Assembly (NCBI GenBank): GCA_964638535.1
Contig: CAZWYW010000003.1
Location: forward strand, 30,229-54,228
Length of the DNA stretch: 24,000 nt
Direction of reading: 5' to 3'
Source of the DNA: an uncultured Candidatus Bathyarchaeia archaeon
Lineage (GTDB): Archaea; Thermoproteota; Bathyarchaeia; EX4484-135
Shown: piece after piece, positions 3 through 20,815 of the stretch
Layout: each line of letters begins with the position of its first letter
Numbering within the stretch: the first letter of the stretch is position 1
Made by a program: the position numbers and the translations under genes
Notes under the pieces: model-generated
The model's input: only the letters and a program-made list of their open reading frames with translations
Told to the model about the DNA's origin: nothing
Database searches by the model: none

Positions 3-749
3 TACATCGTGACGGCCTCCGGCTGCGCGGCCATGAGCATAGGCTTCTACAAGGACGAGGAAGGCCTCACGCCTTACGAGCGCTTCTCCGGCGCCTTCGA
101 GGCCGGCGGTATAGTGAACGTGGGCTCCTGTGTGGCGAACGCCCATATCTCGGGCGCGGCCATCAAGATAGCCAGCATATTCGCTAGGAGGAACCTAAGG
201 GCCAATTACGAGGAGATAGCGGACTACATACTCAACCGCGTGGGCGCTGTGGGCGTGGCCTGGGGAGCCATGAGCCAGAAGGCCGCCAGCATAGCCGCTG
301 GGTTCTGGCGCTTGGGCGTGCCCGTGATAGTAGGGCCGCACGGTTCCAAGTACAGGCGCATGCTCCTGGGTAGGCAGGACCGTGAGGAAGACTGGTATGT
401 GTATGATGCCCGCACGGGAGAGCGCGTCTACGCTGGCCCCTGCCCAGAGCACCTCTTCTTCGCGGCCGAGACGAAGGAAGAGGCTATGGTGTGGATAGCC
501 AAGCTCTGCATGAGGCCCAACGACACCACCAAGGGCCGTGCCATCAAGCTCACGCACTACATAGACCTGCACAAGCGCTTCTTCGGCACCATGCCTGATG
601 ACCTACACCTCTTCGTGCGCACCAAGGCCGATATACCGATAACCATGAAGGACGAGATACTCGCCTTCCTGAAGGAGAAGGGCTGGAAGGAGAGGCCCAT
701 ACCCGACCCTACACTACTGCCCAGGCTCATAAGGGCCAAGAAGGCGTGA
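3..749 (+). CDS. cdhA: Acetyl-CoA decarbonylase/synthase alpha subunit (Ni-CO dehydrogenase catalytic subunit), C-terminal ~249 aa; the 5' end lies outside the window
   Basis: The frame is open from the window edge to TGA at 747-749. The GSCVANAH motif resembles the GSCV(D/A)N C-cluster Cys motif of Ni-CODHs. The gene lies immediately upstream of cdhB-C-D-E. Confidence 0.85.
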
Positions 750-757
750 GCCCCGGC

Positions 758-763
758 TTTTTT
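758..763 (+). terminator. Oligo-T tract (T6) 8 nt after the cdhA stop; candidate archaeal intrinsic terminator
   Basis: The sequence gccccggcTTTTTTgc follows the TGA directly. Archaeal termination commonly uses T-tracts. A second T-rich run (cccttt) follows. Confidence 0.4.
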
Positions 764-870
764 GCTGCCCTTTCCGTATGTTAATAGCTGTCCCGCCAAC
801 TTTATGCCTCTGTATAAGGGCCATAATGCCATAATAATAGTGCCCTCTTACCCACCTGGCCCGATCCGCA

Positions 871-899
871 CGTAATAACTATAAGCCAAATCGTAATAA
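871..899 (+). promoter_or_regulatory. Candidate TATA/promoter for a leaderless cdhB transcript, with two CGTAATAA direct repeats spaced 21 bp
   Basis: CGTAATAA occurs at 871-878 and 892-899. TAATAA at 873-878 is centred about 25 nt upstream of ATG 900. cdhB has no Shine-Dalgarno, unlike cdhC/D/E. Confidence 0.45.
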
Positions 900-1502
900 A
901 TGTTTAGCTGGCCGAAAAAGACTTATAGCTTGGCTCTCCGGCACCTGGGGTGTCATAAGTTGGCGGCAGAGCCCTGGCAGAGGGCCGAGGTGCCCGGGAC
1001 AGTCAAGGCCACAGTCGTGAAGAAGCCGGAGGTCGTGGCGGCCCTCCTGAAGAGGGCCAAGAGGCCTATCATAATTGTGGGCCACGAGGCTGCTGAGTTC
1101 GAGCTTTCCAACGGCACGACGCTCCTCGACATGTTGGCCGAGCTGGCGAAGAAAACGGGCGTCCCCGTGGTCGCCACGGCCCACGTGGGTCCCATGTTGG
1201 TTGAGAGGGGTGTCCAGCCAGCGGCCATCATGTCCGCGCTCGATATAGGGCAGAGGTTAGCCGACCCGGGGTGGCAGGGCCTAGATGGCCAGGGTCAGTA
1301 TGACCTAGTGCTGATAGCCGGCCTGCCCTACTACATGGAGTGGGTTCTCACGGCCAACCTCAAGGATTTCGCGTCGCATCTCAAGGTGATCAGCCTGGAC
1401 CCGTATTACCAGCCGCACGCCACTTGGTCTTTCCCGAACACGAGGCCAGAAGACCATGAGAAAAACCTTAAGGCCCTCATAGAGGCCGTGGGCGGGAGGT
1501 GA
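900..1502 (+). CDS. cdhB: Acetyl-CoA decarbonylase/synthase epsilon subunit
   Basis: The protein is 200 aa. PWQRAEV...VKKPEVVAALLKRAKRPIIIVGHEA matches the conserved CdhB N-terminal pattern (PW...A..V.P......KRP.L.VG). Position between cdhA and cdhC supports the call. The start could instead be TTG at 960. Confidence 0.8.
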   Translation: MFSWPKKTYSLALRHLGCHKLAAEPWQRAEVPGTVKATVVKKPEVVAALLKRAKRPIIIVGHEAAEFELSNGTTLLDMLAELAKKTGVPVVATAHVGPMLVERGVQPAAIMSALDIGQRLADPGWQGLDGQGQYDLVLIAGLPYYMEWVLTANLKDFASHLKVISLDPYYQPHATWSFPNTRPEDHEKNLKALIEAVGGR

Positions 1503-1506
1503 TGGG

Positions 1507-2916
1507 ATGCCGTCCGGTATGTTCGCTGATATCCCTGTGGACGTGGGCGTGGTCTACGAGGGCGAGCGCATAAGGCGAAAGCAGATGTACGTTGAGTTCG
1601 GCGGCCCTAAGGTACCTTACAAATTCGAGCTCGTAAGGGCCCGTAAGATGGAGGAGGTCGAAGACGGGAAGATAACCATCATAGGCCCCGACATAAAGGA
1701 CCTCGAGGAAGGCGGTAGCTACCCCCTCGGCATCTTGGTTGAGGTAGCGGGCAAGGAGGTAGAGGAAGAGCTCGAGGGCGTCATAGAGCGCCGTATTCAC
1801 GAGTTCTGCAACTACATCGAGGGCTTCATGCATCTCAACCAGCGCTACGACATCTGGCTCCGCTTGAGCAAGAAGTCCTTCCAGAAGGGCTTGAACAGCT
1901 TCGAGTACATCGGTAAGGTCCTCATAAGGCTGTTCAAGAGCGAGATGCCCTTCATAGAGAAGATCCAGGTCACCTTCATCACGGACCCGGAGAAGGTCAA
2001 GGAGATGTATGAGGAGGCCCTAAGGGTCTACGAGGCCCGTGATGCCCGCGCCAGGGGCCTGAAGGACGAGGAGGTTGATACCTTCTACGGCTGCACGCTC
2101 TGCCAGAGCTTCGCCCCCACGCATGTATGCGTGATCACGGCCCAGCGCTACTCCAACTGCGGCGCTATAAGCTGGTTCGACGCCCGCGCGGCCGCTAGGG
2201 TAGACCCGAAGGGGCCCATCTTCCCCATACCCAAGGGCAAGTGCCTTGACCCGGTGAAGGGCGAGTACGAGGGCGTGAACAAGGTCGTGAAGGAGAAATC
2301 GCTGGGCGCAATAGAGCGCGTCTGGCTGTATACGGCCTTCGGCTACCCGCACACCTCCTGTGGCTGCTTCGAGGCCGCTGCCTTCTACATGCCGGAGGTA
2401 GATGGCTTCGGCATAGTCCACAGGGGCTTCAGGGGCGAGACGCCTAACGGCCTGACCTTCGTGGCTATAGCTGACGCCACGGCCGGCGGGAGGCAGGTAG
2501 ATGGCTTTCACGGCATCTCCTTCGAGTACATGAGGTCCCCGAAGTTCCTCCAGGCCGATGGCGGCTGGCACCGTGTGGTCTGGGCGCCCAAGGAGGTGCT
2601 AGAGCGCGTCTGGGACTTCATACCCGAGGACGTGAGGGACAGGATTGCCACGGAGGAAGACGTGAGCAACATGGAGGAGCTGAAGAAGTTCCTCATAGAG
2701 AAAGGACACCCGATAGTGGAGCGTTGGAAGGAGAAGGGCCTGCTGGTCGAGGAGAAGCCTGAGGAGGCCAAGCCCGAGGAGGCCGTGGAGCTGGCGCCCG
2801 GAGCCGTGCCAGCTGTGGCGGGCCTGCCAGCCCTGGGAGGCGTGAGGATAACGCTCGAGGACGCGGCCGTCTTCATCCGCCGGTTGATAATCAAGGCCCC
2901 CGAGAAGAGGAGGTAA
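1507..2916 (+). CDS. cdhC: Acetyl-CoA decarbonylase/synthase beta subunit (acetyl-CoA synthase, A-cluster subunit)
   Basis: The protein is 469 aa. It carries CTLCQSFAPTHVCVIT and HTSCGCFE (the Cys-Gly-Cys A-cluster motif). GGAGGTGAT precedes the ATG. The C-terminus is a Glu/Pro/Ala-rich linker followed by the ITLEDAAVFIRRLIIK tail. Confidence 0.92.
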   Translation: MPSGMFADIPVDVGVVYEGERIRRKQMYVEFGGPKVPYKFELVRARKMEEVEDGKITIIGPDIKDLEEGGSYPLGILVEVAGKEVEEELEGVIERRIHEFCNYIEGFMHLNQRYDIWLRLSKKSFQKGLNSFEYIGKVLIRLFKSEMPFIEKIQVTFITDPEKVKEMYEEALRVYEARDARARGLKDEEVDTFYGCTLCQSFAPTHVCVITAQRYSNCGAISWFDARAAARVDPKGPIFPIPKGKCLDPVKGEYEGVNKVVKEKSLGAIERVWLYTAFGYPHTSCGCFEAAAFYMPEVDGFGIVHRGFRGETPNGLTFVAIADATAGGRQVDGFHGISFEYMRSPKFLQADGGWHRVVWAPKEVLERVWDFIPEDVRDRIATEEDVSNMEELKKFLIEKGHPIVERWKEKGLLVEEKPEEAKPEEAVELAPGAVPAVAGLPALGGVRITLEDAAVFIRRLIIKAPEKRR

Positions 2917-2922
2917 TGGCAG

Positions 2923-3075
2923 ATGGGCGAGAAGAGCGGGTCCGAGGGCAAGGGCGTGGTCCTCCAGGCCTCCGAGCTGGCCAAGCTCTTGGCCAACTTC
3001 GGGGCCATAGAGTTTGAGGACGTGGTGATAAAAGCTAAGAAGCTCATCATAAAGCCCGTGAAGAAGGAGGGGTAA
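2923..3075 (+). CDS. 50-aa micro-ORF, a paralogous copy of the CdhD N-terminal module (MGEKSGSEGKGVVLQASELAKLLANFGAIEFEDVVIKAKKLIIKPVKKEG)
   Basis: It is absent from the ORF track, presumably because it is short. GGAGG at 2909-2913 lies about 9 nt upstream of the ATG. It exactly fills the cdhC-cdhD gap (stop 3073-3075, cdhD ATG at 3080). Bases 2983-3045 are 50/63 identical to cdhD 3158-3220 in the same reading frame. Confidence 0.6.
   Translation: MGEKSGSEGKGVVLQASELAKLLANFGAIEFEDVVIKAKKLIIKPVKKEG
2983..3045 (+). repeat. Copy 1 of a 63-nt in-frame direct repeat (offset 175 nt)
   Basis: The copy aagctcttggccaa...atagag...gaggacgtgg...gctaagaagct was aligned by eye to 3158-3220. 50 of 63 positions are identical, with no indels. 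Confidence 0.85.
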
Positions 3076-3079
3076 GGCT

Positions 3080-4330
3080 ATGCCGGAAGAAAAACGCAAG
3101 CCTGAGGAAGGGGAGAGCGTAGAAGGCTTCCTAGCCAGCTTCCTGCCCGACCTCCTGAAGCTCTTGGCCAAGTACGAGGAGATAGAGCTGGAGGACGTGG
3201 AGCTCCACGCTAAGAAGCTGGCCTTTGAACTCCTGCCGGTCATCCCTGCTGCGCCTCCAGTCCCAGCGGCCCCGCCGGTCGCCAAGCCGACTGAGCTGTT
3301 GAGGGAGGGCTTCGAGCCACCCGTGATGACTTACCCCGGCAGGGTAGAAGAGGTCAAGATAGGGGCCACGCGCTCCGAGGGCGGCAGCAGGGGCAAGACG
3401 TACGTGATAGGCGGCGAGATGAACCCACCTTACTACATCTTCGAGAGGCCCCCGCCTCACAGGCCCATAATATCCATGGACGTCTTCGACACCAAGGTGC
3501 CGCTGCCGAGGGCCGTTAAGATGCACATAAAGGACGTGATAGACGATCCAGGCGAGTGGGCCAAGCGGAACGTGGAGAAGTTCGGCGCCGACATGATAGT
3601 GGTCCACCTGCTGAGCATGGACCCGCTCATAGAAGACAAGGCGCCTAAAGACGCCCTGAAGACGATCGAGGAAGTCCTCCAGGCCGTGGACGTGCCGGTG
3701 GTGGTGGGCGGCTGTGGCGACCCAGAGAAGGACGCGGAAGCCTTCAAGATCGCCTCCGATATGTTCTCCGGCGAGAGGCTGATAATGAGCTCCGTCACGC
3801 TCGACATGGCTGATAAAGGCGTCTTAGATGAAACGGCCAAGGCCATAGCCCAGCACGGGCACATAGCCCTCGCCTTCACGCCCATAGACCTCAACTTGGC
3901 CAGGGAGCTGAACAGGAAGCTCTACGGCCACGTGGCCAGGGACAGCATAATTATGGACCTGACCTCGGCTGCCCTCGGCTACGGCAGCGAGTACTCCTAC
4001 ACCATCATGGAGCGCGCCCGCTTGGCTGCTCTCATGGGCGATAAGGAACTCCAGCACCCGATCATGGCTTGCTCGGCCAACACCTGGGCTGCCCGTGAGG
4101 CCTGGATCAAGGAGGCGGAGATAGGCGAGATCTGGGGTCCGAGGGAGCTGAGGGGGCCGATGTACGAGACGGTAGCGGCCCTCGTCTATCTCCTAGCCGG
4201 CGCGGACTGGCTGATGGTGGAGCATCCAGCCACCACGAGGACTCTGAAGGAGTTCATAGATATCCTCATGAAGAAGGGTGCCGCCAAGCCAGAGACCATA
4301 GCTGGCTGGGTGAGCGCGAAGCTGGGGTGA
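3080..4330 (+). CDS. cdhD: Acetyl-CoA decarbonylase/synthase delta subunit (corrinoid/Fe-S protein small subunit)
   Basis: The protein is 416 aa. SEGGSRGKTYVIGGE, DVFD, PGEWAKRNVEKFGADMIVVHL, LQAVDVPVVVGG and IMDLTSAALGYG closely match remembered Methanosarcina CdhD. AGGAGG lies 9 nt upstream of the ATG. Confidence 0.92.
   Translation: MPEEKRKPEEGESVEGFLASFLPDLLKLLAKYEEIELEDVELHAKKLAFELLPVIPAAPPVPAAPPVAKPTELLREGFEPPVMTYPGRVEEVKIGATRSEGGSRGKTYVIGGEMNPPYYIFERPPPHRPIISMDVFDTKVPLPRAVKMHIKDVIDDPGEWAKRNVEKFGADMIVVHLLSMDPLIEDKAPKDALKTIEEVLQAVDVPVVVGGCGDPEKDAEAFKIASDMFSGERLIMSSVTLDMADKGVLDETAKAIAQHGHIALAFTPIDLNLARELNRKLYGHVARDSIIMDLTSAALGYGSEYSYTIMERARLAALMGDKELQHPIMACSANTWAAREAWIKEAEIGEIWGPRELRGPMYETVAALVYLLAGADWLMVEHPATTRTLKEFIDILMKKGAAKPETIAGWVSAKLG
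3158..3220 (+). repeat. Copy 2 of the 63-nt in-frame direct repeat, within the cdhD 5' region
   Basis: See 2983-3045. It encodes KLLAKYEEIELEDVELHAKKL, against KLLANFGAIEFEDVVIKAKKL in the micro-ORF. Confidence 0.85.
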
Positions 4331-4336
4331 GAGGGT

Positions 4337-5794
4337 ATGTCGGGCAGCGGCGCTAAGGAACTCAGCCCAATAGAGATATACAAGTACCTGCCTAAGACGA
4401 ACTGCGGGAAGTGCGGCGAGAAGACCTGCATGGCCTTCGCCACCAAGCTCGCTAACAGGGAGGCCAGGCTGGAGGAGTGCCCCGAGCTGCTGAAGCCCGA
4501 GTACAAGGAGGCGTACGAGAAGCTCTGGGAGATGCTCAGGCCGCCGGTGCGCGAGGTAGTCTTCGGCTCAGGCGAGAGGGTAGCCAAGATAGGCGGCAAG
4601 TACGTGATGTACAGGCACGAGCTCACCTACCACAACCCAACCGTGATAGCCATAGAAGTGGACGACACCATGGAATTGAGCGAGATAGAAGAGCGCATCA
4701 AGCGCCTGGAGGAGCTCTCGTACATTTACATCGGGCGCGAGCTGAAGCTGGATGCCGTGGCCGTGAGGTGTGTCTCGGGTGATGCCGAGCGCTTCAAGGC
4801 AGCCGTGGAAGCCGTGGCCAAGCTGACGGACATGCCCTTGGTTCTCTGCTGCCTAGACCCGGAGATCATGGAGAACGCCTTAGTGACCGTGTACGAGCGC
4901 AGGCCCCTCCTCTACGCGGCCACCAAGGACAACTGGCGTGAGATGGCAGAGCTGGCCACGGGTTACAAGTGCCCATTAGCTGTCTTCGCGCCCGGGGATA
5001 TAGCGCTCCTCAGGTCCCTCGTGAAGACCTTGCGGGCTTACGGCGTGGAAGACCTGGCCTTAGACCCCGGCACCTTCCCGGGCGAGGGCTTCTCGGACAC
5101 ACTGAACAACTTCGTGATGATACGCCGCGCCGCCTGTAAGATGGGTGATGACCTGTTGGGCTACCCGCTCATAGGCGTGCCAGCCGTGGCCTGGTTGAGC
5201 GAGGGCGGGAAGGAGAAATCCAAGGAGGAAGAGGAAGCCGAGAAGGTCTTGAAGGCCTGGCGCGAGGCTTGTATGGCCGTCATGCTCATCACTCGCTTCG
5301 CCGACCTGCTCATCATGCACAGCTTAGAGGGCTGGGTCCAGCTGCCTATCATGATCTGGCGCGAGAACATCTACACCGATCCGCGCAAGCCCGTGGCTGT
5401 GGAGCCCGGCCTGAAGGCCTTCGGCACGCCGGATGAGATGACGCCCGTGCTCGTCACGACCAACTACGCCCTGACCTACTTCACGGTGGAGAACGACATT
5501 AAATCCGCAAAGATAGATTGCTACCTATTAGTGGTGGATACTGAGGGCCTAAGCGTCCAGAGCGCGGTGGCAGGCCGTAAGCTCACGGCTGAGCTAGTGG
5601 CGGACGCGCTGAAGGAATCCGGCGTGGAGGAGAAAGTGAAGCACCGTTACCTCATCATACCCGGCCTGGCCGCCCGCCTGAGCGGCGAGATAGAAGAGCT
5701 CACGGGCTGGAAGGTGCTCGTGGGGCCACAGGATTCCTCTGCCATACCGAAGTTCTTATCGGAGAAGTGGCCGCCTAAGGAACAGGAAGAGTGA
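4337..5794 (+). CDS. cdhE: Acetyl-CoA decarbonylase/synthase gamma subunit (corrinoid/Fe-S protein large subunit)
   Basis: The protein is 485 aa. The N-terminal Cys cluster KTNCGKCGEKTCMAFATKLA...EEC is the CdhE/AcsC [4Fe-4S] motif. It is the last gene of the cdh cluster. Confidence 0.9.
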   Translation: MSGSGAKELSPIEIYKYLPKTNCGKCGEKTCMAFATKLANREARLEECPELLKPEYKEAYEKLWEMLRPPVREVVFGSGERVAKIGGKYVMYRHELTYHNPTVIAIEVDDTMELSEIEERIKRLEELSYIYIGRELKLDAVAVRCVSGDAERFKAAVEAVAKLTDMPLVLCCLDPEIMENALVTVYERRPLLYAATKDNWREMAELATGYKCPLAVFAPGDIALLRSLVKTLRAYGVEDLALDPGTFPGEGFSDTLNNFVMIRRAACKMGDDLLGYPLIGVPAVAWLSEGGKEKSKEEEEAEKVLKAWREACMAVMLITRFADLLIMHSLEGWVQLPIMIWRENIYTDPRKPVAVEPGLKAFGTPDEMTPVLVTTNYALTYFTVENDIKSAKIDCYLLVVDTEGLSVQSAVAGRKLTAELVADALKESGVEEKVKHRYLIIPGLAARLSGEIEELTGWKVLVGPQDSSAIPKFLSEKWPPKEQEE

Positions 5795-5802: not shown

Positions 5803-6564
5803 CTACTGTATCAACCTAGTCTTTTCTCTAACCACGATCTCCCAGGGCTGCCTGAGTTCTGCTTTCTCCAATAGCCTTACGTCTGAGAACACTTCTCCTG
5901 GCTTCCCCTCGGCCTCTACGCGCCCGCCCATCAATACGTAAACGTAATCGGCTATCCCGTACGCGAAATCCACGTCGTGTGTGGCTATCACGAAGGTCCG
6001 GCCGGAGCGCACGCCTTCGGCCATCAGCTCCTTGAGGAAAGCCACGTAACGAGGGCTGAGGAAGGCCGTGGGCTCGTCCACGAGGAAGACCTCGGGCTCG
6101 TAGACCAAAACAGTGGCTAAGGCAGCTTTCTTCTTCTCCCCGTAGCTCAGCCTGTAAGGCGGCTTGGTCAGTAAGCCCTCTATGCCGAGCTCGGCAGCTA
6201 CCTCGGTCACCTTAGCGCGTACCTCCTCCTCGGGCAGCCCCAATTGCCTGAGGGCGAAGGCTATGTCATCGAACACCGTAGGACAGAAAAGCTGGTCATC
6301 TGGGTCTTGGAAGACGAGGCCCACGTGCCTCCTGAGCTCCGGCCCCAGCTCGCGGATATCGCGGCCCCTGAAGGCCACCTGGCCCTCCTGGGGCTCCAGC
6401 AGGCCTGCTATGACGAGCAAGAGGGTCGTCTTGCCGGCGCCGTTCGGGCCTAAGAGGGCCGTTACCTCGCCCTCTAATATGGCGCAGTCCACGCCTCTGA
6501 GGGCCACCGTGCCGTCGGGGTATCTGAACCACACATTAGAGCACGTGATGACCGCGCCGCCCAT
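5803..6564 (-). CDS. cbiO: ECF-type Ni/Co transporter ATPase component (CbiO/NikO)
   Basis: The protein is 253 aa. It has Walker A GPNGAGKTT, signature-like LSYGEKKK, Walker B FLVDEPTAFL and H-loop ATHD. It is the last gene of the cbiM-N-Q-O order. Confidence 0.88.
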   Translation of the reverse strand: MGGAVITCSNVWFRYPDGTVALRGVDCAILEGEVTALLGPNGAGKTTLLLVIAGLLEPQEGQVAFRGRDIRELGPELRRHVGLVFQDPDDQLFCPTVFDDIAFALRQLGLPEEEVRAKVTEVAAELGIEGLLTKPPYRLSYGEKKKAALATVLVYEPEVFLVDEPTAFLSPRYVAFLKELMAEGVRSGRTFVIATHDVDFAYGIADYVYVLMGGRVEAEGKPGEVFSDVRLLEKAELRQPWEIVVREKTRLIQ

Positions 6565-6568
6565 CGCG

Positions 6569-7387
6569 TCACACCACCTCCAGGATGAAGAGCGCGATAT
6601 AACCCACGGCCGCTAGGAGCCAGATCAGGTCGCGGACGCCCAACCTAAAACACCCCCTCGGATCCGAGATGTTGGCCGGGCTGCCGAACGGGCACCTAGC
6701 CCTCATGGCGAGCCCTACCTTCCAAGCCCTGTTAAAGGCCCTGAGCAAGAGGTCGCCACAGCAGCTGGCCAGGACGAGCCAGGAGGAGCTTATCCTCGGC
6801 TTCCTCAGCAGCCTGGCCTCCCTGGCCGCGAGGAGGCGCTGGGCCTCGCGTATGGAGAGCGGCACGTACCTGGCCGTGAGGAAGGCCATGTTAGGTATAG
6901 TGCCCGTGGGGTCTACGGCGTGGAGGCCTCTGATGAGCGTGGTCAAGCCCGCGTAAGCCGTCCAGGCCACACCAATCGATATGGCGTTCAGGCACCTCAA
7001 GACGAACGCGGCTGCCTTCAGGGTGCCTTCCCGCGTGGCCACCAGGCGTAGCGGGCCGAGCTGGATGGCGTAAGTGACGGCACCGGGGGTTATGAAGGGA
7101 AGTGGCAGCGCTATGATGGTCAAGAAGGGCAGGATAAGGCCTACTAACTTCAGGAAATTGCCTAGCTCGCGGCTGGCCACTGCTAAGACGAGCGCTAGGG
7201 CGAAGGGCAGGAAGGAGCAAGCGCGGAGCGGGATGGGGCTGCTGAAGGCTGCCGGGGAGACAAAAAGGACTAGGAGGGCGAGGGAGGTGAAGGGCGCTAT
7301 CCTCGGTGACCTCTCCTTTGCTAGCCTATCTAGGACGTGGCCAACAGCGTCCAAGTAGCGCATTAACAGACCGCGCCGCCAGAGCAT
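6569..7387 (-). CDS. cbiQ: ECF transporter transmembrane (T) component (CbiQ/NikQ)
   Basis: It is a 272-aa polytopic hydrophobic protein between the small N-type component and the ATPase. The start could instead be the internal ATG at 7363. Confidence 0.75.
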   Translation of the reverse strand: MLWRRGLLMRYLDAVGHVLDRLAKERSPRIAPFTSLALLVLFVSPAAFSSPIPLRACSFLPFALALVLAVASRELGNFLKLVGLILPFLTIIALPLPFITPGAVTYAIQLGPLRLVATREGTLKAAAFVLRCLNAISIGVAWTAYAGLTTLIRGLHAVDPTGTIPNMAFLTARYVPLSIREAQRLLAAREARLLRKPRISSSWLVLASCCGDLLLRAFNRAWKVGLAMRARCPFGSPANISDPRGCFRLGVRDLIWLLAAVGYIALFILEVV

Positions 7388-7391
7388 CGCT

Positions 7392-7712
7392 TTACCCCTG
7401 GCCCTTGGCTAAGAGCGCCATAAGCCCCAGCCCGAGCGCGAGTATGATGGCCACACCCACGATGCCCGAGATTATGTAGCCCACCGATAAGCCAGCCCAG
7501 TCCTCGGGGAGGCCGGGCACAGTGTAATCCGGCAGCAGGCCGGACCAAATGCCCGATTCCTCTAAGCCCCGCTTCTCGGCGGCCACGTCTAAGGGCTCGT
7601 GGTAGCCCACTAGCTCGGCCCCTATGACGCCGAACAGCGGGCTTATGATGAGCAACACGGCTATGACGGCCAGCGCCCTCTTGTGCTTGGCCAGGAAGCC
7701 CTCCAGGGCCAA
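7392..7712 (-). CDS. Small membrane component of the Ni/Co ECF transporter (CbiN/NikN-like, PDGLE-domain-like)
   Basis: The protein is 106 aa with N- and C-terminal TM helices flanking HEPLDVAAEK...PDYTVPG, which resembles the PDGLE domain. The TTG start lies 2 nt after the cbiM stop. Confidence 0.65.
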   Translation of the reverse strand: MALEGFLAKHKRALAVIAVLLIISPLFGVIGAELVGYHEPLDVAAEKRGLEESGIWSGLLPDYTVPGLPEDWAGLSVGYIISGIVGVAIILALGLGLMALLAKGQG

Positions 7713-7714
7713 AT

Positions 7715-8371
7715 TCAGCTCACCCCTGGTAACCTCACGCTCATGACAAGCGATGGCGCCCTCCTGGCGATGTAATCCACCACTAGGGCCGTTATGATGC
7801 CCTCTATCACGCCTAGGCCGAAGTGCCAGAGGCCCATGACCGGCACGGTTATGGCTATCCCGAAGGGGAAAGCAGGCGAATAGCCTATCTCTAGGCCACA
7901 GGCCACGCCAGCCAACGTTATGCCCAGCCAGCCGCCTAGGAAAGCGCCCGCTAACCTGTAGGGCCTCTCAGGACCACCGAGCTTCACGAAGGCCATGAAG
8001 AACGCGTAGCCCACCAACACGTCTATGATGCCCATGTTGAGGACGTTGGCCCCGAGGGCCGTTATGCCGCCATCGCCGAAGACCAAGCACTGTATGAGCA
8101 AGACGACCAGCAAGACTAACTCGCCTAGCCAGGGGCCGAGGAGGATGCCGGCCAAGGCGCCGCCTACCATGTGGAGGCTAGTGCCGCCGGGCAGGGGCCA
8201 GTTCAGCATCTGGGCCGCGAAGATGCCAGCTGCCAGCAGGGAGGTCAGCGTGATGGTCTCGGGACCTAGGGCTCCCCTGGCCTTATAGACCGCGTAGGCC
8301 GTGAAGGCGATGGTTAGGGCATAGCAGATGCCAGCCGTCAGCGGATCCAAGAAGCCATCCGGTATGTGCAT
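7715..8371 (-). CDS. cbiM: Ni/Co ECF transporter substrate-capture (S) component (CbiM/NikM)
   Basis: It is multi-TM. I place the start at the ATG giving N-terminal MHIPDGFLD, because the CbiM/NikM family uses the Met1-His2 N-terminus to bind metal. The track ORF starts 7 codons earlier, at 8392. Confidence 0.85.
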   Translation of the reverse strand: MHIPDGFLDPLTAGICYALTIAFTAYAVYKARGALGPETITLTSLLAAGIFAAQMLNWPLPGGTSLHMVGGALAGILLGPWLGELVLLVVLLIQCLVFGDGGITALGANVLNMGIIDVLVGYAFFMAFVKLGGPERPYRLAGAFLGGWLGITLAGVACGLEIGYSPAFPFGIAITVPVMGLWHFGLGVIEGIITALVVDYIARRAPSLVMSVRLPGVS

Positions 8372-8430
8372 ACTTTCCCCACCGGCCGTCATACCAGGCC
8401 AGGGTATTTAAGTATTACATTTCCCGGAGA

Positions 8431-18755: not shown

Positions 18756-18859
18756 GGCCTTGTGAAGCAGCCTAGAGCGCCGGCACGCGGGCCATCTATA
18801 GAGGCTCTTTACATAATCCATATACGCCCCCGGCCTCCTCATGGCCGGGCTGAGGGGGC

Positions 18860-20815
18860 TTGTGCACCTTAATCACGCTCTACCGGTCGCTCGAGGGCTA
18901 CCACGTGGTCGCGATGTTCAACCGTTACGCTCCCCGCCGCTCACAGGTGGAGGCGCCCCCGAGGCTCGTTAAAGGGCGCCGCTACTTGATCTGTTGCCCG
19001 GTAGATGTGGCCTCGGGCGGGACGTGGGTGGGCTTCAACGAGGCTGGCCTCTTCGCGGCCGTCACGGACCAACATAGCGGCCCCGTGATAAAGCCCAGGA
19101 GGAGCAGAGGGCTCCTCTTGCTCGATGTACTCGGGGGCTTCAGCGATAGCCGTGAGGCAGCCGATTACGTAAGGCACGAGGTGAGGAAGGGCTACATCAC
19201 GGGTAATTTCGTGGTGGCGGACGAAGAAGCCATGTTCCACGTCATCTACGATGGCCAAGTGCACGTGCGCGAGTTAGGGCCGGGCGCCCATGTCTTCACT
19301 AACCTCACCATGACGCCTAACGTGGACCTCTCGGACGAGCTCATTAAGGCGATACACGAGAGGGCCGAGGCGCGCAGGACAAGGGCTGTGAAGCTGCTGA
19401 GCGGCTGGGAGCCCTCGAGCCTGGCCGAGGCCCTGGAGAAGCTAAAGACCATAGCAGCCGACCACGGGGACTCGCCCGGGCGCAAATCCATCTGCTACCA
19501 CGATTCCGGCGATTGGAAGATGACTTCCTCTACCATCTTGGCCGTCTCGCACGATTTCGAGCGGTCTAAGGTGCTCTATTGCCCCGGCAATCCCTGTTCC
19601 TCCGCCTTCGTGGATTACTCGCACGTCCTGAGCGCTGGGCCAGGCGAGGTAAGCAGGAAATCAGATAGGCTGGCTGGAAGGAGGATAGCGCTCTGTGTGA
19701 CGGGTAGCTCGGCGGCTACAGAGGCGCCCAAGCTGGCCAGGGAGCTAAGGAGGCATGGGGCCGAGGTAATCTGCTACATGACGCCCGAGGCCGCCAGGCT
19801 AATAATATCGCCGGAGGTCATGAGGTGGGCTACCGGCAGGCCCGTGGTGTTAGAGCTCACGGGCGCGGCCGAACACATAGCTGATTACGATTTAGTGGTG
19901 GTCTACCCGGCCACCTTCAACACCATATGCAAGATAGCAGCCGGTATAGCGGATAACGCTGTGGCTTCCCTCTGCGCGGCTACCCCGCCTGATAAGCTTG
20001 TGCTGGCGCCAGCCATGAACCTCAAGCTCTACGGCAGCCCGATACTAAGGGAGGCCCTGAATAAGCTGGCCACGTTAGGCGTGAAGATAGCCGAGCCGAG
20101 GGTGGAGGAGGGCGCGGCCAAGGTGGCCGAGAAAGAAGCCGTGGTGGACTTGGCCATCAGGACCCTCTCCACCAGCAGGCTCAAGGGGCGCGGCGTGCTC
20201 GTGCTCGCTGGCCCGACCCGGTACGACCTAGATGCCGTCCGCTATATATCAAATAAGTCCAGCGGCGCCTTAGGCTTCTGGTTGGCCAAGGAGGCCTTCT
20301 GGAGGGGCTGCCGCGTCAAGGTGGTCTTCGGGCCCGGCACCGTCCGTTTCCCACGCCACATACCGGTCATCAAGGCTTACACGGTAGAGGACATGCTGAA
20401 CGCTGCCCTGGGGGAGTTCAGGAGCGGTGGGTATGATATAGCTATATTCGCAGCTGCTATACTCGATTTCAAGCCCGAGAGAACGCTCGATATGAAGCTG
20501 AAATCGGGCGCCGAGTGGGCCATGAAGCTTGTCCCGACGCCAAAGGTGATAGAAGCCGTGAGGCGTGAGTTCCCCGACCTCTTCGTGGTTGGCTTCAAGC
20601 TAGAGTACAAGGTGTCAGATGAGGAGCTCGTGGCCTCGGCCCGGAAGCTCCTAGAGAAGCTCGACCTAAACGTGGTGGTCGCGAACGACCTCACCCAGAT
20701 AAGAGCCGGCCGGCACAGGGCGCTCCTTGTCACGGCGGATAGCGTTAAGGAGGTAGATGGCCCTAAGAGCTTGCTGGCCAAGGAGATATTCGACCTAGTA
20801 GAGGAGCTCTTCTGA
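18860..20815 (+). CDS. coaBC: Fusion protein: N-terminal NRDE/TANGO2-like (DUF833) domain + phosphopantothenoylcysteine decarboxylase (CoaC) + phosphopantothenate-cysteine ligase (CoaB)
   Basis: This is a 651-aa single ORF. Residues 1-~258 begin M-C (TTG-TGC) and carry FNRYAPR, SGGTWVGFNEAGLFAAVTD, RSRGLLLLD, GNFVVAD and SICYHD...MTSSTIL, parallel to the human TANGO2 landmarks (MC, ANRDE, GGTWLG, SRG, NGFNL, C...GTRT). Residues ~273-440 carry IALCVTGSSAA, PATFNTICKIAAGIADN and PAMN (CoaC flavoprotein). Residues ~445-651 carry LAGPTRYDLDAVRYISNKSSGALG, AAAILDFKP and VVGFKLE (CoaB). Confidence 0.8.
   Translation: MCTLITLYRSLEGYHVVAMFNRYAPRRSQVEAPPRLVKGRRYLICCPVDVASGGTWVGFNEAGLFAAVTDQHSGPVIKPRRSRGLLLLDVLGGFSDSREAADYVRHEVRKGYITGNFVVADEEAMFHVIYDGQVHVRELGPGAHVFTNLTMTPNVDLSDELIKAIHERAEARRTRAVKLLSGWEPSSLAEALEKLKTIAADHGDSPGRKSICYHDSGDWKMTSSTILAVSHDFERSKVLYCPGNPCSSAFVDYSHVLSAGPGEVSRKSDRLAGRRIALCVTGSSAATEAPKLARELRRHGAEVICYMTPEAARLIISPEVMRWATGRPVVLELTGAAEHIADYDLVVVYPATFNTICKIAAGIADNAVASLCAATPPDKLVLAPAMNLKLYGSPILREALNKLATLGVKIAEPRVEEGAAKVAEKEAVVDLAIRTLSTSRLKGRGVLVLAGPTRYDLDAVRYISNKSSGALGFWLAKEAFWRGCRVKVVFGPGTVRFPRHIPVIKAYTVEDMLNAALGEFRSGGYDIAIFAAAILDFKPERTLDMKLKSGAEWAMKLVPTPKVIEAVRREFPDLFVVGFKLEYKVSDEELVASARKLLEKLDLNVVVANDLTQIRAGRHRALLVTADSVKEVDGPKSLLAKEIFDLVEELF

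Follow-up and report, generated by a model that had tools for sequence, protein, structure and literature searches.

A single archaeal gene that joins a domain of the TANGO2/NRDE family to CoaBC, the enzyme that makes the coenzyme A (CoA) precursor 4'-phosphopantetheine, raises the question of what these two proteins could be doing on one polypeptide. The gene lies on the forward strand, at positions 18860-20815 of a 24,000-nucleotide stretch of contig CAZWYW010000003.1 (positions 30,229 to 54,228) from an uncultured Candidatus Bathyarchaeia archaeon; this whole stretch is hereafter called the window. CoaB joins cysteine to 4'-phosphopantothenate at the expense of CTP, and the resulting compound is decarboxylated by CoaC to 4'-phosphopantetheine. 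The function of TANGO2 is contested, the proposals being heme trafficking, the binding of acyl-CoA and N-terminal nucleophile (Ntn) hydrolysis; patients are given pantothenate on an empirical basis.

An initial interpretation of this DNA from its letters alone (the sequence-only reading) had recognized the fusion and knew of no description of it, and indeed no account of the architecture was found in the searchable literature, outside which most subscription-journal papers lie. The NRDE and CoaBC families are both known; what is new is that in one archaeal clade they are fused or share an operon, and that this linkage is conserved. Based on the analysis described below, we read the gene as encoding a conserved three-domain enzyme, in which an N-terminal cysteine hydrolase would act on a pantetheine-bearing metabolite; we hold this reading tentatively, at slightly less than an even chance.

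The fused gene and its domains

The gene is one uninterrupted open reading frame (ORF) of 651 codons that starts TTG-TGC, as the sequence-only reading had stated, and all the motifs that it quoted are found: FNRYAPR (residues 20-26), GGTWVG (53-58), RSRG (81-84), GNFVVAD (115-121), C212 followed by TSST (222-225), PATFNTICKIAAGIADN, PAMN and GPTRYDLDAVRYISNKSSG. The TTG at 18860 is the sole start yielding Met-Cys, because a stop codon lies in frame just upstream and the next possible starts in the frame (V16 and M19) would each remove the conserved first strand; in the alignment, start-Cys-Thr-Leu-Ile opens all 12 complete fused genes, the window's included. The GC content (0.57-0.64) is continuous over the domain junction, and no repeats were seen in the window sequence where the two halves meet. 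The features of the gene are the following:

18808..18825 (+): AT-rich, TATA-like stretch TTTACATAATCCATATAC in GC-rich surroundings, ~35-50 nt 5' of the start codon
18851..18853 (+): in-frame TGA stop, three codons 5' of the TTG start (read from the sequence)
18860..18865 (+): TTG start and TGC (Cys2), from the ORF list and the sequence; Cys2 is the presumed N-terminal nucleophile after Met removal
18860..19633 (+): TANGO2/NRDE-family module, residues 1-258 (PF05742, profile, AlphaFold2 and Foldseek), predicted Cys-Ntn hydrolase (alpha-beta-beta-alpha) fold
19634..19657 (+): linker, ~residues 259-266, AGPGEVSR (alignment of the 12 complete fusions; lower model confidence)
19658..20158 (+): CoaC, phosphopantothenoylcysteine decarboxylase (flavoprotein), ~residues 267-433 (PF02441; invariant His and PAMN kept)
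20180..20815 (+): CoaB, phosphopantothenate-cysteine ligase, ~residues 441-651, and stop codon (PF04127; Lys, AAAxxD and AND kept)

Upstream of the start, the GAGG at 18852-18855 is a possible Shine-Dalgarno-like element and, judging only from its composition and position, TTTACATAATCCATATAC may be an archaeal promoter element.

The first ~258 residues (the N-module) had been assigned to NRDE/TANGO2, and hidden Markov model (HMM) searches bear this out: PF05742 (TANGO2) matches residues 1-174 with 39.4 bits in the full protein, a score that rises to 42.5 bits if only residues 1-258 are submitted (the Pfam gathering score being 22.6), and the same domain is precomputed for all 120 relatives among the matches listed in the N-module search. 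A family profile reaches human TANGO2 (8sv7, 9bwa) with an E-value of 9e-13. Below threshold, the C45_proenzyme (autoproteolytic acyltransferase/hydrolase) HMM matches residues 39-235 (E 3e-10), and PF03417 and C45 co-match on relatives of the N-module. When predicted alone by AlphaFold2 with the family alignment, the N-module models confidently as a Cys-Ntn hydrolase fold, with a predicted local distance difference test score (pLDDT) of 93.2 and a predicted template-modelling score (pTM) of 0.92. In a Foldseek comparison with the PDB, human TANGO2 (9bwa, 8sv7; E 2e-12, TM 0.63-0.67) ranks level with acyl-CoA:isopenicillin-N acyltransferase (E 4e-12 to 3.5e-11, TM 0.66-0.70), followed by CV2077, bile-salt hydrolases (BSH), penicillin V acylases and C69 dipeptidases.

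A 2026 crystal structure of human TANGO2 was interpreted as a Cys-Ntn hydrolase, with Cys2, Asn25, Arg26, Asp27, Asn75, Asn157 and Lys166 as the proposed catalytic set (PMC13044924). Cys2, Asn21, Arg22 and Asn148 of the window protein align with human Cys2, Asn25, Arg26 and Asn157. The pair Cys2-Thr3 is invariant, both in the 53 archaeal N-modules compared and in the 30 sequences of alignment A1, which includes bacteria; Cys2 is also invariant in alignment A2 (archaeal N-modules). Arg22 (equivalent to BSH Arg18) does not vary among archaeal N-modules, the SRG motif is kept, and Asn148, the equivalent of the oxyanion-hole Asn (BSH Asn175), is found in 18 of the 19 linked modules and in all ten sister sequences. 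The literal N-R-D-E signature is not present, since the window protein reads N21-R22-Y23-A24, and the position of human Asn75 is occupied by Asp70. As a separate observation, residue 20 (18917-18919), just before N-R-Y, is Phe here and His in 52 of the 53 archaeal N-modules, which is the only deviation of the window protein at a near-invariant N-module position.

Residues 267-651 are an ordinary, intact archaeal CoaBC. PF02441 (Flavoprotein) matches residues 275-433 with 82.8 bits, PF04127 (DFP) matches residues 441-614 with 145.9 bits, and the NCBIfam equivalog TIGR00521 (coaBC_dfp; trusted cutoff 219.7 bits) spans both domains with 298.7 bits, aligning residues 272-647 to model positions 2-391 of 392, so that the complete CoaBC claimed for the C-terminal part is indeed there. 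All 26 columns that are invariant over 19 aligned CoaBCs (alignment A3, E. coli Dfp included) are kept in the window protein; the kept residues comprise the CoaC His and PAMN, the CoaB Lys, GPTxxxxDxVRxIxNxSSG, AAAxxD and AND. In the same alignment, standalone archaeal and bacterial CoaBCs start at most ~15 residues before the CoaC Rossmann strand, which agrees with the earlier view of the N-module as an addition to an ordinary CoaBC. The linker between the two halves, which the sequence-only reading had put at ~14 residues, does exist, but is really ~9 residues long (SAGPGEVSR), because standalone archaeal CoaBCs start MxKKSxRLxGKRIALC and the window's KSDRLAGRRIALC matches, and so belongs to, that native N-terminus. 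Among orthologues the linker varies in sequence and in length (~8-21 residues, with ~21 in locus L033), and in the AlphaFold2 monomer model of the full-length protein the pLDDT, which is 94.9 overall, drops to 78-84 there.

One feature of the CoaC domain deserves a separate comment. In alignment A3, the window protein lacks the CoaC substrate-clamp cysteine (E. coli Cys158) and has a 6-residue deletion there, at residues ~410-420 (20090-20120). The same cysteine and six residues are likewise missing in all archaeal-type CoaBCs aligned, whether or not they are linked to NRDE, which prompts one to ask what protonates the enethiolate intermediate in these enzymes; the loss is therefore a lineage trait unrelated to the fusion, and the idea that the NRDE cysteine replaces the lost clamp cysteine was rejected on these grounds.

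Recurrence of the fusion in other genomes and metagenomes

The fusion is not unique to one assembly, which had been named as a possible way for the sequence-only reading to fail. The N-module alone, used as query in a word-indexed search, retrieved 301 relatives, almost all of which are standalone proteins of 245-280 residues labelled NRDE; among them, P0009 (414 residues) carries TANGO2 and Flavoprotein domains and runs off the end of a 2.8-kb contig. An exhaustive phmmer search with the full protein against 1.84 billion representatives found P0121 (656 residues), which aligns end to end (query 1-650 to 1-655) with 53% identity and 724 bits, together with the fragments P0122 (404 residues, covering query residues 19-423 with 62% identity) and P0126 (covering query residues 221-463). 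P0121 is NCBI RLF20027.1, annotated solely as 'bifunctional ... CoaBC', and its 90% cluster holds four members from NCBI, JGI and ENA. The reference-genome scan added Candidatus Bathyarchaeota archaeon B26-1 (LUCD01000033.1), where a single-frame fusion runs into masked Ns.

A metagenome scan, seeded only with alignment A2, gave 77 loci, which were classified by tblastn and a stop-codon check as follows:

In-frame fusion, no stop between the halves: 18 loci
Adjacent or split: 4 loci
No CoaBC within at least 600 nt downstream: 38 loci
Too short to judge: 16 loci
No N-module match: 1 locus

The N-module is thus linked to coaBC at 22 of the 60 judgeable metagenome loci (37%), and 12 complete fused genes, the window's included, encode proteins of 650-669 residues. 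Approached from the other partner, the CoaBC relatives P0269, P0270 and P0272 (57-67% identity) are fused or adjacent to NRDE. P0273, a standalone CoaBC that is 61% identical to the CoaC region of the window, lacks an adjoining NRDE, and a phosphopantothenate synthetase (PPS) gene (PF02006) lies 1.7 kb from it on the same strand (L093 5919-6689; L094 4235-5005) in a PaREP1-bearing archaeon; P0276 (54%) is preceded by ribosomal and elongation-factor genes. The carriers of the fusion are a group of heat-loving sediment archaea of the Bathyarchaeia type. The fusion fragment with the greatest similarity, P0122 (NCBI TPA, EYP13_03155), bears the label 'Candidatus Micrarchaeota archaeon', while the other fusions are Bathyarchaeia-affiliated; this label may be a binning or labelling error. 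As a baseline, the extensions in other long CoaBC fusion matches are mostly without an assigned domain, one of them (P0128, 607 residues) having a C-terminal class II aldolase/adducin domain (PF00596).

Split forms, history and selection

The two halves also occur as separate genes in the same order, an adjacency that the sequence-only reading had proposed to look for. In L010/L011 (two samples) and in L009, the NRDE frame ends in a stop codon and coaBC follows in another frame with its own initiator, the coaBC starts reading MEAFRKPVGKLAGRR... and (M)EISKKSGKLADKK... and lying ~25 nt downstream of NRDE or overlapping it by 14 nt. These are true two-gene operons, with NRDE directly upstream of coaBC. 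Other loci present broken forms. L016 differs little from the fused gene of B26-1, except that 20 nt of its GC-rich linker, which codes for Gly and Ala, are duplicated in tandem (4290-4330, compared with L012 6790-6810). The resulting frameshift leaves two overlapping frames; fission may arise naturally in this way, or the duplication may be an error of sequencing or assembly. L007 and L079 keep the NRDE-coaBC gene order, broken by several frameshifts. In L002 (2673-3584; JGI 3300031877), P0007 comprises NRDE, the linker and the first ~30 CoaC residues before a stop, and is followed by unrelated DNA (a TusA-like gene), an arrangement that suggests either what is left of a fusion gene cut short or a contig joined chimerically.

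Fused and adjacent forms fall into one cluster of a neighbour-joining tree built from 61 N-modules, with the adjacent forms nested among the fused ones and the window's protein near the base; which event came first is beyond what a tree of this kind can resolve. An unlinked subgroup (Baldrarchaeum and relatives) lies beside this linked cluster, and a large archaeal clade of lower identity is wholly unlinked. The simplest history compatible with these sequences would be one ancient linkage, followed by occasional fission or loss.

Both halves of the fused gene are under purifying selection. The ratio of nonsynonymous to synonymous rates (dN/dS, Nei-Gojobori) for pairs of fused genes is 0.14-0.22 in the N-module and 0.08-0.18 in CoaBC, and the 12 complete fusions all agree at 63 of the 258 positions of the N-module and at 122 of the 380 of CoaBC. 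Given this low ratio and these retained positions, the N-module is not a decaying relic. The linkage has been retained down to ~47-55% identity in the N-module and 57-63% in CoaBC, with dS saturated.

A possible role for the N-module

Ntn hydrolases require their nucleophile as residue 1, and a Cys at position 2 is accepted by Met aminopeptidase. The sequence thus permits Cys2 to be the mature N-terminal residue: the initiator Met would be removed and Cys2 exposed, with its free alpha-amino group and its thiol forming the catalytic centre. The position of the module at the extreme N-terminus would then be fixed because Cys2 must be residue 1 after Met removal. Cys2 would form an acyl-enzyme with a pantetheine-bearing metabolite, whose acyl bond would subsequently be hydrolysed. 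The likeliest bond would be the thioester of an acyl-CoA or of S-acyl-4'-phosphopantetheine, and the alternative would be the amide between pantothenoyl and either cysteamine or cysteine, in an intermediate that is spent or damaged. In this scheme, CoaBC through de novo synthesis and the N-module through release or salvage would both add to one pool of free-thiol 4'-phosphopantetheine and CoA.

Several observations are consistent with this proposal. The nearest characterised enzyme by fold is acyl-CoA:isopenicillin-N acyltransferase, and C45 acyltransferases draw their acyl group from acyl-CoA. The chemistry suggested in the sequence-only reading, in which a Cys nucleophile would attack an intermediate that contains pantetheine or cysteine, would be reasonable. 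Purified human TANGO2 binds C16/C18 acyl-CoA via the NRDE motif (PMC11867700), and pantothenate rescues fly and cell models of TANGO2 deficiency (bioRxiv 10.1101/2022.11.04.514597). In its broader form, the proposal would make the NRDE/TANGO2 module a hitherto unrecognised enzyme of CoA metabolism, a Cys-Ntn hydrolase or transacylase with a pantetheine-arm substrate (acyl-CoA, S-acyl- or damaged 4'-phosphopantetheine, or phosphopantothenoylcysteine), which in Bathyarchaeia would be physically coupled to CoaBC, either so that the cofactor's thiol end is recycled or repaired or so that CoaB receives its substrate in a phylum reported to be without PoK/PPS; this we consider possible, while doubting it somewhat more than we believe it.

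A number of points weigh against the proposed activity. The Asp of the NRDE motif (human Asp27), proposed to hold the alpha-amine of the cysteine, is Tyr in all 53 archaeal relatives, and in the window protein Tyr23 occupies this position (BSH Asp21; acyltransferase (AT) Asp121), so that, as aligned, one member of the canonical Ntn set is missing; its place in three dimensions may be taken by a different invariant acidic residue (Asp49, Asp70 or Asp201). A confident inter-domain interface was not found in the full-length monomer model, whose pTM is 0.69 (0.92 for the N-module alone) and which speaks neither for nor against a fixed interface. For human TANGO2, Lujan et al. exclude acyltransferase activity, and a hydrolase activity is not reported (PMC11867700). 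For every member of the clade, the activity of the N-module is a prediction from sequence. Finally, the linkage is confined to one archaeal clade of the Bathyarchaeia type: 38 of the 60 judgeable archaeal NRDE loci have no coaBC nearby, the sister NRDE clade (48-53% identity) is unlinked, and no coaBC was found near NRDE in any sampled context of more distant relatives. A general NRDE-coaBC adjacency in archaea and bacteria was accordingly rejected, P0003, P0010, P0012, a Haloarchaeobius locus and the 38 metagenome loci all being unlinked.

The linked clade also differs in the motif itself. Among the 53 archaeal N-modules, the fourth motif position (human Glu28) is Ala in 19 of 19 coaBC-linked modules, and restricted to them, Glu in all ten of the unlinked sister group, and Leu in 22 of 24 of the distant unlinked group, so that the motif of the linked proteins is N-R-Y-A. 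Glu28 is a pocket residue in human TANGO2 (PMC13044924). Since Ala24 tracks the linkage exactly, linkage to coaBC accompanies a specific change in the presumed substrate pocket. With the linkage restricted to one clade and the motif changed there, it may reflect a specialised rather than an ancestral substrate, and the suggestion of the sequence-only reading that the fusion is evidence for the ancestral NRDE function is not supported.

Alternative explanations

The same architecture could be read in other ways. An N-module that is a non-catalytic sensor of CoA or acyl-CoA, exerting on CoaBC the feedback control that PanK exerts in bacteria and eukaryotes, seems unlikely to us. Enzyme-plus-sensor fusions are common; archaea are generally without PanK-type feedback, with the pathway regulated elsewhere, at KPR (PMC6650551), and human TANGO2 has been shown only to bind acyl-CoA, with no turnover (PMC11867700). 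A domain that only binds, however, would have no need of a free N-terminal Cys, whereas Cys2-Thr3 does not vary, the module is never found anywhere but at the N-terminus, and Arg22 and the oxyanion Asn are retained; moreover, the operon forms are separate chains, which fits two enzymes better than an allosteric domain, though a complex would still be possible. Alternatively, the N-module could supply the substrate of CoaB, standing in for the PoK/PPS route, either by freeing 4'-phosphopantothenate or cysteine from a conjugate or by making the pantoyl-beta-alanine amide by acyl transfer. This supplier role would suit the fold match of the N-module to C45-type Ntn enzymes, which form amides from thioester donors, and Bathyarchaeota are one of the few archaeal groups for which Shimosaka et al. 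report no PoK/PPS homologues (PMC6650551); judging from the P0273 locus, PPS and NRDE also appear as alternative partners of coaBC, but that is one PPS-coaBC context only, an activated pantoyl donor is not known, and NRDE proteins are abundant in organisms with complete PanC/PanK or PoK/PPS routes, so that we regard this explanation as very unlikely.

Improbable, too, is a neutral fusion by loss of a stop codon with no functional coupling, in which the N-module would have a CoA-unrelated function such as heme trafficking or lipid amide hydrolysis. The linkage is clade-restricted, most NRDE genes have unrelated neighbours, and bacterial homologues have been assigned a role in heme trafficking (PMC10470608). 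Neutrality sits poorly with a link kept through the sequence divergence and dS saturation described above, with split genes that remain adjacent and overlapping, and with the exact tracking of linkage by Ala24; as to heme, no heme-related neighbour was seen in the window or the linked loci, and the heme role itself is disputed in two 2026 reports (eLife, PMC12782551; Acta Cryst D, PMC13044924). An artefact (a frameshift, chimeric join or read-through error in one assembly) deserves next to no weight: related contigs do carry frameshifts in the gene (L007, L079, L016), but ~19 independent contigs from many samples and the B26-1 reference metagenome-assembled genome hold an uninterrupted frame, and a continuous composition, a junction free of repeats and purifying selection on both halves led us to reject it.

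Comparison with known systems

With human TANGO2 (8sv7, 9bwa) and PF05742, the N-module shares the Met-Cys start, the predicted alpha-beta-beta-alpha Ntn fold, the Asn-Arg pair, SRG, the oxyanion Asn and a size of ~260 residues; it differs in having only ~16% identity, N-R-Y-A instead of N-R-D-E, an archaeal host, the fusion to CoaBC and no mitochondrial targeting. The isopenicillin-N acyltransferase (C45; 2x1c/2x1d/2x1e), which ties with TANGO2 as the best structural match, has an N-terminal Cys nucleophile and uses an acyl-CoA thioester as donor. This enzyme frees its Cys by proenzyme autoproteolysis, while the Cys of the window protein follows the initiator Met; the identity is ~17%, and the substrate-pocket residues are not conserved. 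Compared with canonical CoaBC/Dfp proteins (E. coli Dfp, MJ0913 of M. jannaschii, TK0517 of T. kodakarensis), residues 267-651 are a full-length match with the invariant residues kept, and the window protein has ~265 additional N-terminal residues; the difference from E. coli Dfp at Cys158 is, as described above, not specific to the fusion.

The class II Ntn glutamine amidotransferases (PurF, GlmS, AsnB) carry an N-terminal Cys Ntn domain upstream of a synthase domain, and by analogy the arrangement here would be similar, with a Cys-Ntn domain freed by Met or propeptide removal and fused ahead of a synthase, an order that lets hydrolase and synthase act in concert. The Ntn subfamily is nevertheless different, CoaB takes cysteine and not ammonia, and nothing in the window protein points to glutamine hydrolysis or to an ammonia channel. 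The closest precedent for the argument is another CoA-pathway gene fusion, that of PPAT-DPCK in uncultured archaea, which served as a Rosetta stone for an unassigned protein family and led to the discovery of the archaeal DPCK (PMC6650551). There, biochemistry and genetics bore the inference out, while the NRDE-CoaBC inference comes from sequence and models.

A linkage, under purifying selection, to the enzyme that makes 4'-phosphopantetheine is an independent and purely genomic pointer to CoA chemistry, and it narrows a vague hypothesis about TANGO2 to a short list of assayable reactions. The archaeal protein should be thermostable and is likely to be easily expressed, and it carries a candidate substrate pathway on the same polypeptide. 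For archaeal biology, a third activity would be added to CoaBC in a phylum whose 4'-phosphopantothenate route is unsettled. If the proposal is true and its chemistry carries over to eukaryotes, human TANGO2 would gain a concrete enzymatic role and the benefit of pantothenate in TANGO2 deficiency would be explained; with the linkage in one clade and an altered motif, this transfer is a hypothesis.

Genomic neighbourhood

No other CoA-biosynthesis gene was found near the fusion in the window, and a wider conserved CoA operon around it was sought and not found across the linked loci. The only other recurrent neighbour across these loci is a gene of the isochorismatase/nicotinamidase family (PF00857), directly upstream of the fusion in one subclade:

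L001 921-1502: PF00857 gene
L012 5353-5940: PF00857 gene
L016 2834-3436: PF00857 gene
L033 1-432: PF00857 gene

Since nothing else is conserved beside the N-module in the linked loci, its specific partner is coaBC.

In the window, the cdh operon (archaeal carbon monoxide dehydrogenase/acetyl-CoA synthase) occupies 9-5794 (+), with a truncated Prismane/CdhA fragment, the epsilon subunit, CdhC (beta; 92% identical to its nearest database match) and two CdhD-family genes, and indicates a Wood-Ljungdahl, acetyl-CoA-centred host metabolism. All relatives of this CdhC that carry a name belong to Ca. Bathyarchaeota/Bathyarchaeia or Thermoproteota. The cdh operon is adjoined at 5803-8392 (-) by a CbiM/CbiQ/ABC-ATPase transporter (CbiMQO, of the energy-coupling factor type, for cobalt or nickel), which would make sense as the metal supply for Ni enzymes. 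An aldehyde:ferredoxin oxidoreductase is also present, a homoserine dehydrogenase is divergent from the fusion, and a prolyl oligopeptidase lies downstream. Opposite coaBC, at 20377-20781 (-), the window holds an antisense "shadow" ORF with equivalents at ten other loci; such conserved antisense ORFs face both coaBC and the NRDE module, and are most simply a by-product of high GC and sense-strand conservation, not genes.

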